Origin: Escherichia coli
Lineage (GTDB): Bacteria; Pseudomonadota; Gammaproteobacteria; Enterobacterales; Enterobacteriaceae
NCBI RefSeq assembly: GCF_048403405.1
Contig: NZ_CP183129.1
DNA length: 64,000 nt
Strand: one strand, 5' to 3'
The translations under genes and the position numbers were made by a program. The stretch's first letter is position 1. Each line of letters opens with the position of its first letter. The notes below the pieces were generated by a model. The model was not told where the DNA came from. It did no database searches and saw only the letters and a list, made by a program, of their open reading frames with translations. Shown in pieces: positions 197 to 37,247 of the stretch.

Positions 197-1690
197 TCAG
201 GCGCTTTTACCGTTGTTAAAAATAGCCAGTTCATCCCAGATGGCGTCAATATGCGCGACAACATCCGGATCTTTTTTGATGGGACGTCCCCATTCACGCT
301 GGGTTTCCCCTGGCCATTTATTCGTGGCATCCAGCCCCATTTTTGAACCCAGCCCGGACACAGGCGAGGCAAAATCCAGATAATCAATAGGCGTATTTTC
401 GACCAACACCGTGTCCCGCGCCGGGTCCATACGGGTGGTAATCGCCCAAATCACATCGTTCCAGTCGCGTGCGTTGACGTCATCATCGCAAACGATCACA
501 AATTTAGTGTACATAAACTGGCGTAAGAACGACCAGACGCCCATCATGACGCGCTTCGCGTGTCCGGCGTACTGTTTTTTGATCGTCACTACCGCCAGGC
601 GATAAGAGCAGCCTTCCGGCGGCAGGTAAAAATCGACAATTTCCGGGAACTGTTTTTGCAGAATCGGCACAAACACTTCGTTCAGTGCGACACCCAGCAC
701 CGCAGGTTCATCCGGCGGACGCCCGGTATAGGTGGAATGATAAATCGCATCTTCACGCTGGGTAATATGCGTCACAGTAAATACCGGGAAACTATCGACT
801 TCGTTATAGTAACCGGTGTGGTCGCCATACGGCCCTTCCGGCGCAGTTTCGCCTTGTTCGATATACCCTTCCAGCACTATCTCCGCACTGGCGGGCACTT
901 CAAGGTCATTGGAGATACACTTCACCACTTCGGTCTTGGTGCCGCGCAGCAATCCGGCAAACGCATACTCTGAAAGCGTATCTGGAACGGGGGTGACTGC
1001 ACCGAGAATCGTGGCGGGATCGGCACCCAGCGCCACAGAAACCGGGAAACGTTCGCCCGGATGCGCCGCACACCACTCCTGGAAATCCAGCGCGCCGCCG
1101 CGATGCGACAACCAGCGCATAATCAGTTTATTTTTACCAATCAACTGTTGACGATAAATACCCAGATTCTGCCGCTCTTTATGCGGGCCACGCGTCACGG
1201 TCAACCCCCAGGTAATCAGCGGCGCGGCGTCTTCCGGCCAGCAGGTCATAATGGGGATACGGTGAAGATCGACGTCATCGCCGGAGATAATTTTTTGCTG
1301 ACACGGCGCACCACGCAGTCGCTTTGTCGGCATGTTCAATACTTGCTTGAACTGCGGCAGTTTATCAAACAGGTCGCGGAAACCTTTTGGCGGCTCCGGC
1401 TCTTTCAGAAACGCCAATAATTTACCAACTTCACGCAGCGCCGAAACATCTTCCTGCCCCATGCCCATCGCCACGCGCTTTGGCGTACCGAACAGGTTGC
1501 ACAGCACCGGCATTGAGTAGCCTTTAGGGTTTTCGAACAACAGCGCAGGCCCACCGGCACGCAAAGTACGGTCAGCAATTTCAGTGATTTCCAGATGCGG
1601 ATCCACCGGGAGCGTGATACGTTTTAGCTCACCCTGCTGTTCAAGCAGCGTCAAGAAGTCGCGTAAATCGTTATATTTCATGGCGTCCAT
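197..1690 (-). CDS. ubiD: 4-hydroxy-3-polyprenylbenzoate decarboxylase UbiD
   Basis: 497-aa ORF of the expected length and sequence for the UbiD family; conserved neighbourhood with fre and rfaH. Confidence 0.93.
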
Positions 1691-1811
1691 TGTAGCCTCT
1701 TAATCTGCGCCCATTATACGGCGTTCATCTTTGCGATGCTGTAAATTTGTTAAATTAGCGTGAACTCTGACGGTATAACGCAAACCGGGGAATATAATTA
1801 ACTTAGCGTAA

Positions 1812-3124
<1,313 letters not shown>

Positions 3125-31475: not shown

Positions 31476-32096
31476 ATGACCTTAGAATGGTGGTTTGCCT
31501 ACCTGCTGACATCGATCATTTTAAGCCTGTCGCCAGGCTCTGGCGCAATCAACACCATGACCACCTCGCTCAACCACGGTTATCGCGGCGCGGTGGCGTC
31601 TATTGCTGGGCTTCAGACCGGACTGGCGATTCATATTGTGCTGGTTGGCGTGGGTTTGGGGACGCTATTTTCCCGCTCAGTGATTGCGTTTGAAGTGTTG
31701 AAGTGGGCAGGCGCAGCTTACTTGATTTGGCTGGGAATACAGCAATGGCGCGCCGCTGGTGCAATTGACCTTAAATCGCTAGCCTCTACTCAATCGCGCC
31801 GACATTTGTTCCAGCGCGCAGTGTTTGTGAATCTTACCAATCCCAAAAGTATTGTGTTTCTGGCAGCGCTATTTCCGCAATTCATCATGCCGCAACAGCC
31901 GCAGCTGATGCAGTATATCGTGCTCGGCGTCACCACTATTGTGGTCGATATTATTGTGATGATCGGTTACGCCACCCTTGCTCAACGGATTGCTCTATGG
32001 ATTAAAGGACCAAAGCAGATGAAGGCGCTGAATAAGATTTTCGGCTCGTTGTTTATGCTGGTGGGAGCGCTGTTAGCATCGGCGAGGCATGCGTGA
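31476..32096 (+). CDS. rhtB: Homoserine/homoserine-lactone exporter RhtB (LysE family)
   Basis: 206-aa LysE/RhtB-family membrane protein, divergent from pldB. Confidence 0.9.
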
Positions 32097-32104
32097 AAAA
32101 TAAT

Positions 32105-32134
32105 GTCGGATGCGGCGTAAACGCCTTATCCGAC
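32105..32134. repeat. REP (repetitive extragenic palindrome) element between rhtB and rhtC
   Basis: GTCGGATGCGGCGTAAACGCCTTATCCGAC, the typical enterobacterial REP consensus, between convergent genes. Confidence 0.5.
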
Positions 32135-32157
32135 TTACTCTGATGACGCGTCTGGCA

Positions 32158-32778: not shown

Positions 32779-32841
32779 ACATTAGACTCGCGGGGGAAAC
32801 GTTTACGGAGTCTTCATCCTGGCACTTTTTTATCCTGCTGA

Positions 32842-34677
32842 CTACTCTTCGTCATCGCCATCAACATGTGCACGAATCAGCGCCATAAACGGTTTGCCAA
32901 AGCGTTCCAGCTTGCGCATCCCAACGCCGTTAACGCTGAGCATTTCGCTGGCAGTGATCGGCATCTGTTCCGCCATCTCAATCAAGGTTGCGTCGTTAAA
33001 CACCACGTACGGCGGGACATTGCTTTCATCGGCAATCGATTTACGCAGTTTGCGTAATTTGACGAACAGTTTGCGATCGTAGTTGCCGCCGAAGGATTTC
33101 TGCATCGCTTTCGGTTTGAGCGCCACGATACGTGGCACGGCAAGTTGCAAAGAGGATTCGCCGCGCAGCACCGGACGCGCAGCCTCTGTCAGTTGTAGGG
33201 CAGAATGCTGGGCAATATTTTGCGTCACCAGGCCGAGGTGAATCAGCTGGCGGATCACGCTCACCCAATGTTCATGGCTTTTATCACGGCCCATGCCATA
33301 GACTTTCAGTTTGTCATGACCATAGTCGCGGATACGCTGGTTATTAGCGCCACGAATCACTTCCACCACATAACCCATCCCAAACCGCTGATTCACACGA
33401 CCAATGGAGGAAAGGGCAATCTGAGCATCGGTTGAACCATCGTATTGTTTCGGCGGATCGAGGCAGATATCGCAGTTCCCGCACGGCTCCTGCCGCCCTT
33501 CGCCAAAGTAGTTCAGCAGCACCAGACGACGGCAAGTTTGCGCTTCGGCAAACGCGCCCATCGCATTGAGTTTATGACGTTCGATATCCTGTAACTGCCC
33601 CTGCGGTTTCTCTTCCAGACAACGACGCAGCCACGCCATATCCGCCGGATCGTAAAACAGCATCGCTTCCGCGGGCAGGCCATCACGCCCGGCGCGTCCG
33701 GTTTCCTGATAATAGGATTCAATGTTGCGCGGAATATCAAAATGCACCACGAAGCGAACGTTTGGTTTATTGATGCCCATGCCGAACGCCACCGTCGCCA
33801 CCACAATTTGCAGGTCATCGCGCTGGAATTTCTCCTGCACATCAGCGCGAACATTATTTTCCAGCCCGGCATGATAGGCCGCCGCGCTAATTCCCTTGCT
33901 TTGCAGGCGCGCAGCGGTGTCTTCTACTTTCGCACGACTATTACAGTAAATAATCCCCGACTTACCGCGTTGTTCCTGTACATAACGCATCAACTGATCG
34001 AGCGGTTTGAATTTCTCCATCAGCATGTAGCGAATATTCGGACGGTCAAAACTGCTGATTTGAATCAGCGGATCGTTCAGCCCCAGCAGGCGCACGATAT
34101 CCTGGCGCGTGGTGTCATCGGCTGTGGCAGTCAGCGCCATAAACGGCAGCGTCGGAAAACGCTGACGCAGCTGACCGAGGGCAGCGTATTCCGGGCGGAA
34201 ATCGTGACCCCATTGGGAGATACAGTGCGCTTCATCAACGGCTAATAACACCGGATTCCAGTGCGCCAGATGCTCAAGAAAGTTATCCAGCATCAGACGT
34301 TCCGGCGCGATATAAAGCAGGCGGATTTGCCCGGTGCGACAGCCTGTCATAACTTCAAGTTGCTGCTCGCGGGTTTGCGTCGAGTTAAGGCACGCCGCCG
34401 CCACGCCGTTGGCTTGCAGTTGATCCACCTGATCTTTCATCAACGAAATCAGCGGTGAAACAACCACGGTAAGGCCGTTTAGCAATAAGGCAGGAATTTG
34501 ATAGCAAAGGGATTTTCCGCCACCAGTGGGCATGACGACGAGGCAATCGCGGCCGGAAAGCACAGTGTCGATAATTTCTTCCTGGCCGGGGCGAAACTGT
34601 TGGTAGCCAAAGGTTTCTTGTAAAACCTGTTTAGCTCCGGACTCCAGATTCAACACTTCCGCCTGCGCCACATTCAC
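32842..34677 (-). CDS. recQ: ATP-dependent DNA helicase RecQ
   Basis: 611-aa ORF with DEAH helicase motifs ([15 protein letters not shown]), zinc-binding cysteines ([10 protein letters not shown]) and an HRDC region. The canonical start may be 2 codons downstream. Confidence 0.95.
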
Positions 34678-34689
34678 CCCGATTGCCTG

Positions 34690-34720
34690 AAATAAAAACA
34701 GGCGCTATTTTCAGCGCCTG
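34690..34720 (-). terminator. Rho-independent terminator downstream of pldA, immediately upstream of recQ
   Basis: On the minus strand: CAGGCGCT-GAAAAT-AGCGCCTG hairpin followed by TTTTTATTT, between the pldA stop (34804) and the recQ start (34677). Confidence 0.5.
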
Positions 34721-34803
34721 CGCGAGAAACTGCAATGCTTTTAGTCTCTGAGAGGGTAATCCTGGATACTGGATTCCAGATTTGCCAACCACTCAACCGT
34801 TCA

Positions 34804-35673
34804 TCAAAACAAGTCGTTTAGCATAACCCCTACACCAACGCGGGTCTGGTTGAAGTTATAGTCGATGAGCGATTCGCCGTAACCGCTGTAAACCTGAGTA
34901 TAAAGGCGCACATGTTTGGTGATCGGGTAACTTAAGCCTAACTCCGCGCCGCCGTAGCCCGTGTTCCAGTTGTACTGTCCTTTCGCACTCAACACCGCAT
35001 CACCGAGGTGATAGCCAATTTTAAGCTGGTAGTAACCCATATATTTGGTGATATCCGGGTTATCGTCAGTATTACCCACCACATACCACGGCTTCACCTC
35101 TACCAGCCAGTTACCGTTTTCTGCCATCAGGCGGGTATAAAGGCGGTTCCAGCTACGGGAGGTCGGGTCTGAACGCCCGTTAGAGTCGTGGTTATACCCC
35201 ATCTCCACATCGCGCAGCGTCCAACCTGCAAAACGGTAATCGGTAGCAAAACCGAGGAACAATTGCGGTTCGTAGTTGGTTTCACGAAACGGTGAAGACT
35301 CTTCGCTATTGGACAGTTGCCACCAGGATTTTTGCGTATAAGACGCACCCAATACCGAGTTCGGGCCTAAAATCCCACGCCACAGCGGAAATGCCAGGCT
35401 CAACTGAAACTTTACTTCATCCTTACGCGCATTTTCCGCCCAGTCGTAACTGGCAATCGCTTCTTTATTCAGATCGCTGGTTTGGGTATAGATGATGTAG
35501 TTGGTGTCATAAGGATAAAGGGTGAACGGATTGTCATGCTCCTGCAGCATATTGGCGATAATACTGCCACGCACCGCTGGCGCGTCATGCACCTCTTTCA
35601 CCGTTGCCTCTTGTGCATATACTGCCATAGGCAACATAAACACCGGCAACAACCAGCCCTGCAGAGTCCGCAT
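34804..35673 (-). CDS. pldA: Outer-membrane phospholipase A (PldA)
   Basis: 289-aa ORF with N-terminal signal peptide (MRTLQGWLLPVFMLPMAVYA) and beta-barrel-type sequence. Confidence 0.95.
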   Translation of the reverse strand: MRTLQGWLLPVFMLPMAVYAQEATVKEVHDAPAVRGSIIANMLQEHDNPFTLYPYDTNYIIYTQTSDLNKEAIASYDWAENARKDEVKFQLSLAFPLWRGILGPNSVLGASYTQKSWWQLSNSEESSPFRETNYEPQLFLGFATDYRFAGWTLRDVEMGYNHDSNGRSDPTSRSWNRLYTRLMAENGNWLVEVKPWYVVGNTDDNPDITKYMGYYQLKIGYHLGDAVLSAKGQYNWNTGYGGAELGLSYPITKHVRLYTQVYSGYGESLIDYNFNQTRVGVGVMLNDLF

Positions 35674-35837
35674 CGCTCGTGTTCTCCGTAACGAATTATT
35701 GATAAGGTGAATATTTTTCTGCGGGCTATTTTACATACTTAACTCCATAGCCGTTAGTTATCCCTTCCTAAAGTAGAAACCAACAACAAAGAAGCATAAA
35801 ATCAACATTTCATTAACTAATGAAGTGTAAGGATGAT

Positions 35838-36305
35838 ATGTCTGCCGTACTGACCGCTGAACAAGCCCTGAAATTAGTGGGTGAGATGTTTGTTTATCAC
35901 ATGCCATTTAACCGCGCATTGGGGATGGAACTGGAGCGTTACGAAAAAGAGTTCGCACAGCTGGCCTTTAAAAATCAGCCAATGATGGTGGGTAACTGGG
36001 CGCAAAGCATTTTGCACGGCGGGGTCATTGCGTCGGCGCTGGATGTCGCCGCAGGTCTGGTGTGCGTGGGAAGTACCTTAACCCGCCACGAAACCATCAG
36101 TGAAGATGAACTACGTCAGCGGCTATCGCGAATGGGGACCATTGATCTTCGCGTCGATTATCTGCGCCCAGGCAGAGGCGAGCGTTTTACTGCTACCAGT
36201 AGCCTGTTACGTGCAGGCAATAAAGTCGCCGTCGCCCGCGTTGAATTACACAATGAAGAACAGCTTTATATTGCCAGTGCTACAGCCACCTATATGGTAG
36301 GTTGA
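35838..36305 (+). CDS. yigI: Hotdog-fold (PaaI-type) thioesterase YigI
   Basis: ORF open from 35820; canonical start [18 protein letters not shown]. Confidence 0.85.
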
Positions 36306-36356
36306 TAACGTAAAAGCAGGTAAACTGCTGTTACCAATTAAAAATGAGTATTCCCG

Positions 36357-37247
36357 ATGGATGCAAAACAAACGCGGCAGGGCGTATTACTCGCTCTTGC
36401 CGCTTATTTTATTTGGGGTATTGCGCCAGCGTACTTCAAGCTAATTTACTACGTGCCCGCCGATGAGATCCTGACGCATCGCGTGATCTGGTCGTTTTTC
36501 TTTATGGTGGTGCTGATGAGCATCTGCCGCCAGTGGTCCTATTTAAAAACGCTGATTCAGACGCCACAGAAAATTTTTATGCTGGCAGTCTCTGCCGTGC
36601 TGATTGGTGGCAACTGGCTACTGTTTATCTGGGCGGTGAACAATCACCATATGCTGGAAGCGAGCCTTGGTTACTTTATTAACCCGCTGGTGAACATTGT
36701 GCTAGGGATGATTTTCCTCGGCGAGCGATTCCGCCGGATGCAATGGCTGGCGGTGATTCTGGCGATATGTGGCGTGTTGGTTCAGTTGTGGACTTTTGGT
36801 TCACTACCGATTATCGCGCTGGGGCTGGCGTTTAGTTTTGCCTTCTACGGCCTGGTACGCAAGAAGATTGCTGTTGAAGCGCAAACCGGCATGTTAATCG
36901 AAACTATGTGGTTGCTGCCCGTGGCGGCGATTTACCTGTTTGCTATTGCCGACAGCGCAACCAGCCATATGGGGCAAAACCCGATGTCACTGAATTTACT
37001 GCTGATCGCCGCCGGGATTGTCACTACCGTACCGCTGTTGTGTTTTACTGCGGCTGCGACACGCCTGCGTCTCTCAACGTTAGGCTTTTTTCAGTACATT
37101 GGCCCGACGCTGATGTTCCTGCTGGCTGTGACGTTTTATGGTGAAAAACCGGGTGCCGATAAGATGGTGACCTTCGCCTTTATTTGGGTGGCGCTGGCAA
37201 TTTTTGTGATGGATGCGATTTATACGCAGCGTAGAACGTCCAAATAA
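36357..37247 (+). CDS. rarD: EamA/DMT-family transporter RarD
   Basis: 296-aa 10-TM membrane protein following yigI. Confidence 0.9.
   Translation: MDAKQTRQGVLLALAAYFIWGIAPAYFKLIYYVPADEILTHRVIWSFFFMVVLMSICRQWSYLKTLIQTPQKIFMLAVSAVLIGGNWLLFIWAVNNHHMLEASLGYFINPLVNIVLGMIFLGERFRRMQWLAVILAICGVLVQLWTFGSLPIIALGLAFSFAFYGLVRKKIAVEAQTGMLIETMWLLPVAAIYLFAIADSATSHMGQNPMSLNLLLIAAGIVTTVPLLCFTAAATRLRLSTLGFFQYIGPTLMFLLAVTFYGEKPGADKMVTFAFIWVALAIFVMDAIYTQRRTSK

Follow-up and report, generated by a model that had tools for sequence, protein, structure and literature searches.

A canonical Rho-independent terminator has a GC-rich stem, a short loop and a U-tract in which the RNA 3' ends fall, and its read-through is low. 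The hairpin next to recQ in Escherichia coli shares all of these features. It differs from the canonical type in two ways: neither its loop nor its 3' arm varies between genera, and it ends 18 nt before the start codon of the next gene. An overlap between the frd terminator and the ampC attenuator in E. coli was reportedly described by Grundstrom and Jaurin in the early 1980s. Since ampC transcription starts upstream of the hairpin, the ampC leader contains it and ampC expression is attenuated. The pldA-recQ junction is similar to frd/ampC: the terminator of the first unit directly precedes the second gene, whose promoter would overlap the end of the first unit. frd/ampC was also the model in mind in the initial annotation of this DNA, which was made from the sequence alone. 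In contrast to ampC, the main recQ start would lie inside the 3' arm, so the hairpin would be absent from recQ mRNA and could be an attenuator only for the minor RNAs that are initiated upstream or read through from pldA.

Sigma-70 promoters of the rrnB P1 type have a GC-rich discriminator and are sensitive to ppGpp and DksA. The putative recQ promoter likewise has a -10 followed by a GCGCC-type discriminator, and the Salmonella recQ start was seen in early and was absent in late stationary phase. Repression by ppGpp is stronger with higher GC content of the discriminator (Ramachandran 2014, PMC3963941). Unlike the rrnB P1 type, the recQ promoter would be weak, with a non-consensus first base in its -10, and its putative likeness to the ppGpp-sensitive class is seen in its sequence and in growth-phase use of the Salmonella start. 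Reiterative transcription at a T-run near +1 controls the pyrBI, codBA and upp promoters. The initial transcribed sequence of recQ would similarly be U/G and then UUUUUAUUU; however, the T-run at recQ is explained by its role in the terminator. Finally, recQ was reportedly described as SOS-regulated by Irino et al. in 1986. It shares with LexA-repressed SOS promoters a CTG...CAG motif just downstream of the start (CTGTTTTTATTTCAG, 34701..34687). Compared with the LexA box (CTGT-N8-ACAG), the spacing is N9 and not N10, and neither Salmonella nor Citrobacter has kept the CAG half. The 1986 claim of LexA control may have taken this CTG-N9-CAG over the U-tract for an 'SOS box'.

The analysis of the pldA-recQ junction indicated that one element of about 50 bp serves as the pldA terminator when read as RNA and as a weak sigma-70 promoter of recQ when read as DNA. 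The probability of this reading was estimated at about 0.78.

Locus and termination of pldA transcription

The window is the whole stretch of 64,000 nt that was analysed. The 501 bases around the hairpin matched 5425 of 5426 complete E. coli genomes, which identifies the window as E. coli chromosome. The order on the minus strand is pldA, a spacer of 132 nt, recQ and rhtC. Window positions were converted to MG1655 coordinates as 4005864 + (34671 - window position). In MG1655, recQ occupies 4005864..4007693 and pldA 4004862..4005731, and the spacer differs from the window at one base. The features of the junction are listed in Table 1. recQ and rhtC are 63 nt apart (32779..32841) and share one transcript in Yan 2018, extending both RegulonDB single-gene operons.

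Table 1. Features of the pldA-recQ junction, in window positions
Feature	Position	Strand	Basis
pldA CDS, outer-membrane phospholipase A; transcript ended by the hairpin	34804..35673	-	ORF list; RefSeq
pldA 3' UTR upstream of the hairpin	34722..34803	-	comparative alignment
-35-like hexamer TTGCAG of the putative recQ promoter	34730..34735	-	conservation 0.96; always 17 nt before GAAAAT; within the listed promoter of the Salmonella TSS
17-nt promoter spacer (putative)	34713..34729	-	3' half is the hairpin 5' arm; in the 5' half the sequence varies, the length never
Terminator hairpin: 5' arm 34721..34712, loop AAAA 34711..34708, 3' arm 34707..34698	34698..34721	-	terminator scan, fold; RegulonDB pldA terminator via Yan 2018
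Putative -10 hexamer GAAAAT, equal to the hairpin loop plus closing G·U pair	34707..34712	-	invariant in 42/42 TTG-type sequences; TAAAAT in Hafnia, Edwardsiella, Budvicia
Putative GC-rich discriminator AGCGCC, core of the 3' arm	34701..34706	-	conservation 0.98; kept in Budvicia, where the hairpin is lost
Inferred recQ TSS (+/-1 nt), MG1655 4005835, 29-nt leader	34700	-	homologous T mapped in S. Typhimurium SL1344; transferred by sequence identity
U-tract UUUUUAUUU of the terminator; also first transcribed bases of recQ mRNA (inferred start)	34690..34698	-	terminator scan
Mapped pldA mRNA 3' end in MG1655 (4005841), within the U-tract	34694	-	Yan 2018 Supplementary Data 1, Rich_TTS (PMC6131387)
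Shine-Dalgarno GGGG, 5 nt before recQ GTG	34677..34680	-	conservation 0.93
recQ CDS from the conserved GTG, 609 aa	32842..34671	-	RefSeq; GTG kept in 46/46 aligned sequences

The recQ start in RefSeq and in MG1655 is the second GTG (34671). The mechanical ORF list begins the gene at GTG 34677 (611 aa; 34669..34677), a codon that overlaps the Shine-Dalgarno sequence. In the alignment, GTG 34677 was confined to E. coli and the species nearest to it; the codon at this position is GTT or similar in Salmonella and Citrobacter. Because the 34677 GTG is missing outside this group, the alignment identifies 34671 as the true start of recQ. The GGGG five bases upstream of it was kept in all 46 aligned sequences, as was the GTG itself.

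The terminator scan reported a stem at 34721..34698 on the minus strand, with 10 pairs (6 G-C), a loop of 4 and the tail TTTTATTTCA. The terminal pairs of the hairpin are G·U. Folded alone, the hairpin had an energy of -16.6 kcal/mol (z = -3.1), and 2 of 200 shuffles were equally good. Since the plus-strand version of the hairpin is followed by no T-run, the terminator is unidirectional. In SMRT-Cappable-seq of MG1655 grown in rich medium, pldA transcripts ran from a TSS at 4004814 to 4005841, and the match listed for this 3' end is the pldA terminator of RegulonDB, whose centre at 4005825 is window position 34710 in the loop (PMC6131387). Among 64 reads from the pldA TSS, 17 stopped at 4005841, 30 stopped within the next 50 bp and 1 continued for at least 50 bp (PMC6131387). 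Read-through in these published data was thus about 1 in 48 of the pldA reads that arrived at the site, a ratio of small read counts. The hairpin is a working intrinsic terminator of pldA in vivo. The initial annotation had assigned the hairpin and U-tract on the minus strand to pldA, and the scan, the fold and the 3' end at 34694 all agreed with it. It had also placed the terminator 13-19 nt before the recQ start, which agrees with the gaps found from the end of the U-tract: 12 nt for GTG 34677 and 18 nt for GTG 34671.

The proposed recQ promoter and its start site

Before the transcript data were found, conservation had led to the prediction that a recQ promoter lies inside the terminator and that transcription begins at about 34701-34698. 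The candidate site, TTGCAG-17-GAAAAT, matched the consensus at 7 of 12 positions (3/6 + 4/6), with A as the second and T as the sixth base of its -10. No other sigma-70-like site within 400 nt upstream of E. coli recQ scored as well, and the corresponding site ranked first in 41 of 80 loci. About 0.23 equal or better sites are expected by chance per 132 nt, with a weight matrix built from remembered textbook frequencies, so this match is not above chance on sequence alone; its support comes from conservation and TSS mapping. The standard promoter scan at a threshold of at least 9/12 gave no site in the pldA-recQ spacer. From conservation and the mapped start, we infer that the two hexamers are functional elements of the recQ promoter.

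In dRNA-seq of S. Typhimurium SL1344 from a single laboratory, the primary recQ TSS was 4184092, listed with the upstream sequence ATTGTGTTTTAAACATTGCAGTTTCTCTCGCAGGCGCTGAAAATAGCGCCT, which ends in ...CATTGCAGTTTCTCTCGCAGGCGCTGAAAATAGCGCCT (Ramachandran 2014, Table S7, PMC3963941). The TSS is the last base of the listed sequence, a T that lies 7 nt after GAAAAT and inside the 3' arm, and is homologous to E. coli 34700. The Salmonella and E. coli elements were identical at 37 of 38 positions, CATTGCAG through the start. The first annotated base of SL1344 recQ (4184139..4185950, 1812 nt) is 18 nt into the ORF of the E. coli type; this puts the GTG at 4184121 and gives a leader of 29 nt. The T-to-GTG distance in the Salmonella locus of the comparative set (L005) is the same, and the frame and length arithmetic was consistent. 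Given this identity, E. coli probably uses the same recQ TSS as Salmonella. As the mapped +1 is T, an uncommon initiating base, transcription may in fact begin at the neighbouring G. The initial annotation had seen no room for a recQ promoter beyond the hairpin. That view did not hold: the candidate promoter overlaps the hairpin, where only the start site has to fall past the 5' arm, and a recQ promoter independent of read-through is mapped at the orthologous Salmonella locus (TSS 4184092).

Transcripts of E. coli were consistent with this. In Yan 2018 (Supplementary Data 3, PMC6131387), the RegulonDB recQ operon is extended to b3822|b3823 (recQ-rhtC), with pldA not covered, and the pldA operon is extended to b3821|b3822, that is, to a pldA|recQ transcript; one read suffices for each extended-operon call. 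Since recQ|rhtC transcripts free of pldA and pldA|recQ transcripts both exist in E. coli, recQ has a start of its own as well as a read-through form. The read-through transcripts exist but are minor. One transcriptional context of recQ was recorded in M9 and two in rich medium (Yan 2018, Supplementary Data 4, PMC6131387). There was no recQ entry among the rows listed in the Kim 2012 E. coli TSS tables, and the Adams 2021 Term-seq tables held neither a pldA nor a recQ entry, with no pldA 3' end or sRNA. The literature search returned nothing relevant on the recQ promoter, the recQ/pldA terminator, the predicted TSS coordinates or a promoter-terminator overlap; PMC12948059 names both pldA and recQ and is irrelevant to the locus.

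The proposed mechanism is as follows. The pldA RNA would carry both arms, form the hairpin with its U-tract and be released at about 34694. RNA polymerase holoenzyme would read the same DNA differently: the -35 would come shortly before the stem, the 17-bp spacer would include the 5' arm, and the loop and the 3' arm would serve as the -10 and the discriminator. With recQ transcription beginning within the 3' arm, at about 34700, the recQ mRNA would hold only the last base or two of this arm. Because the 5' arm is missing, recQ transcripts could not form the terminator. The recQ mRNA would carry the U-tract first, within a U-rich leader of 29 nt, and then the Shine-Dalgarno GGGG and the GTG start. 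The pldA 3' ends and recQ 5' ends would overlap by about 7 nt, and read-through from pldA would be a minor second route to recQ mRNA. It is plausible that the weak promoter (7/12) and the GTG start keep RecQ low.

Polymerase recycling after termination has been seen in single-molecule work in vitro. A polymerase that ends pldA RNA at 34694 would have the recQ -10 about 15 bp behind it and could re-initiate there while still bound to the DNA, or pldA transcription could occlude the promoter; the U-run at +2 to +10 could add UTP-sensitive slippage. Such effects were judged quite improbable. If re-initiation were true, recQ initiation would be coupled to pldA transcription without read-through. 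If either hand-off or occlusion were true, the invariant loop/-10 would offer a natural in vivo test case for hand-off between terminator and promoter.

The locus carries a lesson for annotation: a gene whose start codon closely follows a terminator need not lack a promoter. A promoter can sit inside a terminator, with its start site past the 5' arm. Deletion of pldA or of its 3' end, or insertion of a cassette there, would remove the recQ promoter. The locus would also be a clean natural substrate for studies of how termination and initiation interfere with, or hand over to, each other. The parts of the arrangement are already public, namely the RegulonDB pldA terminator, the separate recQ unit and the Salmonella TSS table. 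The gain is an understanding of a nested dual-use design and not a new kind of element; the arrangement is neat but largely ordinary.

Conservation of the element and alternative explanations

Conservation was investigated in the recQ loci of 80 Enterobacterales species. The upstream neighbour of recQ was pldA in 77 of the 80, and the length of the intergenic spacer was between 19 and 860 nt. In 47 of 80 loci, a -35-like hexamer was followed by (G/T)AAAAT, (A/G)GCGCC and then 30-42 nt to the GTG, and the promoter spacer between the hexamer and (G/T)AAAAT was exactly 17 nt in all 47. The combination was TTGCAG, TTGAAG, TTGCAC or TTGAAC with GAAAAT in 43 of these, and nnGACA with TAAAAT in the other four (Hafnia, Edwardsiella and two Budvicia). 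The majority-base frequency in 42 sequences was 1.00 for the -10/loop (a value inflated by selection of sequences with a core regular expression, which is offset by the presence of the core in 39 of the 43 closest relatives, the four exceptions being indels), 0.98 for the 3' arm/discriminator, 0.96 for the -35 and 0.91 for the 5' arm. It was 0.62 for the leader between the U-tract and the Shine-Dalgarno sequence, and 0.60 at four-fold sites of recQ in the same genomes (0/60 invariant).

The exact 18-nt core of the element, GGCGCTGAAAATAGCGCC, was found in 35 of 41 loci. The rhtC-rhtB terminator region of the same loci was used as a control: it shared a 12-mer with E. coli in 4 of 41 loci, compared with 40 of 41 for the element, and its hairpin region was repeatedly replaced. 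In Escherichia, the convergent spacer between rhtC and rhtB (32095..32157) contains a REP-like hairpin, GTCGGATAAGGCGTTTACGCCGCATCCGAC; in other genera the hairpins are unrelated or the spacer is missing. Among E. coli genomes, the 58-nt element was 100% identical in 5414 of 5425, and the neighbouring 58 nt of the spacer had several alleles. The pldA 3' UTR before the hairpin is polymorphic in E. coli and unconserved between genera except for its last 14 nt or so, which hold the -35.

In the test for compensatory changes in the stem, 88% of cells paired but shuffles did equally well; there was 1 double change, and the stem was nearly invariant. It showed invariance without covariation. Invariance of the loop is unexpected for a plain terminator and therefore points to double duty, as RNA structure and as DNA signal. 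Such a double constraint probably explains the invariance of the element. The 3' arm would be held constant by its role as discriminator and -10-proximal DNA, and pairing would then require the 5' arm to follow; the stem would be invariant without covariation because its 3' arm is also constrained at the DNA level. The hairpin frozen across Enterobacteriaceae, loop included, would mean that every base serves both RNA structure and DNA signal.

According to the initial annotation, recQ is expressed largely by read-through or from promoters on the pldA side. The corresponding explanation gives recQ no promoter of its own near the hairpin and treats the hairpin as an attenuator that keeps RecQ low. 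Its minor part stands, in that pldA|recQ transcripts exist in E. coli. TSS 4184092 of Salmonella is an early-stationary start and is absent in late stationary phase, when TSS 4183994 is present (Table S2, PMC3963941). The latter lies inside pldA, just downstream of a TATAAT spelled by D-Y-N codons (L005 2359..2374), and counts in favour of this explanation. The spacer of Pantoea and relatives (L062, L068, L069, L074) is only 19-25 nt long and has neither the hairpin nor the element; a strong sigma-70-like TTTACA-17-TATGGT lies inside the 3' coding region of their pldA, about 92-95 nt before the recQ GTG. This suggests that the recQ promoter of the Pantoea lineage is intragenic, or that pldA and recQ are co-transcribed there. 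A genomic-SELEX peak of sigma-28 (FliA) inside pldA, at coordinate 4003446 or window position about 35112 (Shimada 2017), also fits.

The claim that these are the main routes did not stand. Only 1 in 48 pldA reads arriving at the terminator went at least 50 bp further, the primary Salmonella TSS is inside the 3' arm, and a recQ|rhtC transcript exists without pldA. No antiterminator fold stands out, and the whole spacer had z = +0.66. At the D-Y-N codons of pldA, E. coli has TATAAC (about 34846..34851), compared with the perfect TATAAT of Salmonella. The invariant loop would also be left unexplained. Expression mainly by read-through or from pldA is therefore considered unlikely. As a minor route to recQ, read-through may matter in stationary phase, and the upstream promoter within pldA may, going by the codons, be specific to Salmonella. 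A sigma-28 promoter under the SELEX peak was rejected, its match being 10/16 and at chance level. The nearest sigma-28-like sequence to the peak (35060..35067) has a 7/8 -10 (GACGATAA) and a poor -35.

Two leader-based candidates were also rejected. As an antiterminator or alternative fold, the spacer plus leader folded no better than shuffles, and pairing of the U-tract with the Shine-Dalgarno sequence gave -5.2 kcal/mol (z = +0.99). As a leader attenuator of recQ, the hairpin is not wholly downstream of the main TSS, which lies inside the 3' arm, and has no competing fold; this class fits just the minor RNAs from upstream starts or read-through. The Rfam scan of 33500..36500, with E up to 1, gave no leader or riboswitch family, nor any other hit.

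The invariance might also come from a palindromic operator (GGCGCT-N6-AGCGCC) for a dimeric DNA-binding regulator, or from cruciform-prone DNA. The inverted repeat is a perfect one of 8 bp, and invariance of the primary sequence without covariation is what an operator would show. However, Hafnia, Edwardsiella and Budvicia keep only the right half and TAAAAT, with no palindrome. In Hafnia, the retained 3' arm pairs with another 5' arm and TAAAAT falls in a 14-nt loop (-13.6 kcal/mol, z = -3.3), and Budvicia has kept ACGACA-17-TAAAAT-AGCGCC with no hairpin there and with a separate pldA terminator farther upstream. The distance between GAAAAT and the mapped TSS is also the expected one, the LexA-like match does not exceed chance, and no regulator is known. 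A LexA box was rejected as a candidate: the best match was CTG-N9-CAG, at 11/20 of the 20-mer consensus, there were 376 equally good sites in 128 kb, and the match was unconserved. An operator or cruciform-prone DNA was judged very improbable as the cause of the invariance, and either would be compatible with the promoter rather than exclusive of it.

Scarcely credible is a reading of the conserved block upstream of the hairpin (CAUUGCAGUUU) as the seed of an Hfq-type sRNA derived from the pldA 3' UTR and ending at the terminator, which has the usual sRNA layout of a conserved single-stranded stretch beside a terminator with a U-tail but finds no Rfam family even at E = 1 and no pldA entry in the Adams 2021 tables, leaves the invariant loop and fixed 17-nt spacing unexplained, and meets a 'seed' changed to TTGCACTCT in Klebsiella and Raoultella with the hexamer spacing kept.

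Lineages in which the proposed promoter and the hairpin part

The loci in which the junction has been rearranged bear on the reading of the element as both terminator and promoter. The hairpin-free element of Budvicia and the altered hairpin of Hafnia, compared at the sequence level, show that the terminator and promoter functions are separable in evolution. The element also stays with recQ when its neighbour changes. In locus L029, a redoxin-family gene is upstream of recQ, and the whole element is still beside recQ. In E. albertii (L004 1949..2431), a gene for a 160-aa WapI-family immunity protein (Pfam PF24716, E = 5e-20) stands between pldA and recQ; the insert stops just before the -35, and the entire element is intact beside recQ. 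Partial matches to the spacer were also seen within E. coli; the annotation reads 'WapI family immunity protein' for H56 and no more than 'hypothetical protein' for H40.

The reverse was found in loci L022 (an Enterobacter sp. MAG) and L028 (a record named Citrobacter freundii M-21), where the hairpin/promoter block has been replaced and the leader remains. From the U-tract/leader onward the sequence again resembles that of E. coli; this is clear in L022, and L028 is more diverged. A divergent gene for a 185-aa DUF3828 protein (1688..2245) is located between pldA and recQ in L022, and pldA has a different terminator right after its stop. In the 664-nt spacer of L028, no inserted ORF of at least 70 aa was found.

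Yersinia (L053, L061) has a different perfect palindrome, ACAGGCCGGTTAACCGGCCTGT, in the corresponding place, about 30-55 nt before the recQ GTG, with neither a U-tract nor a good -10. The stretch folds at -20.7 kcal/mol (z = -2.9), and candidate roles for it are a Rho-dependent pause, a protein site or a degenerate terminator.
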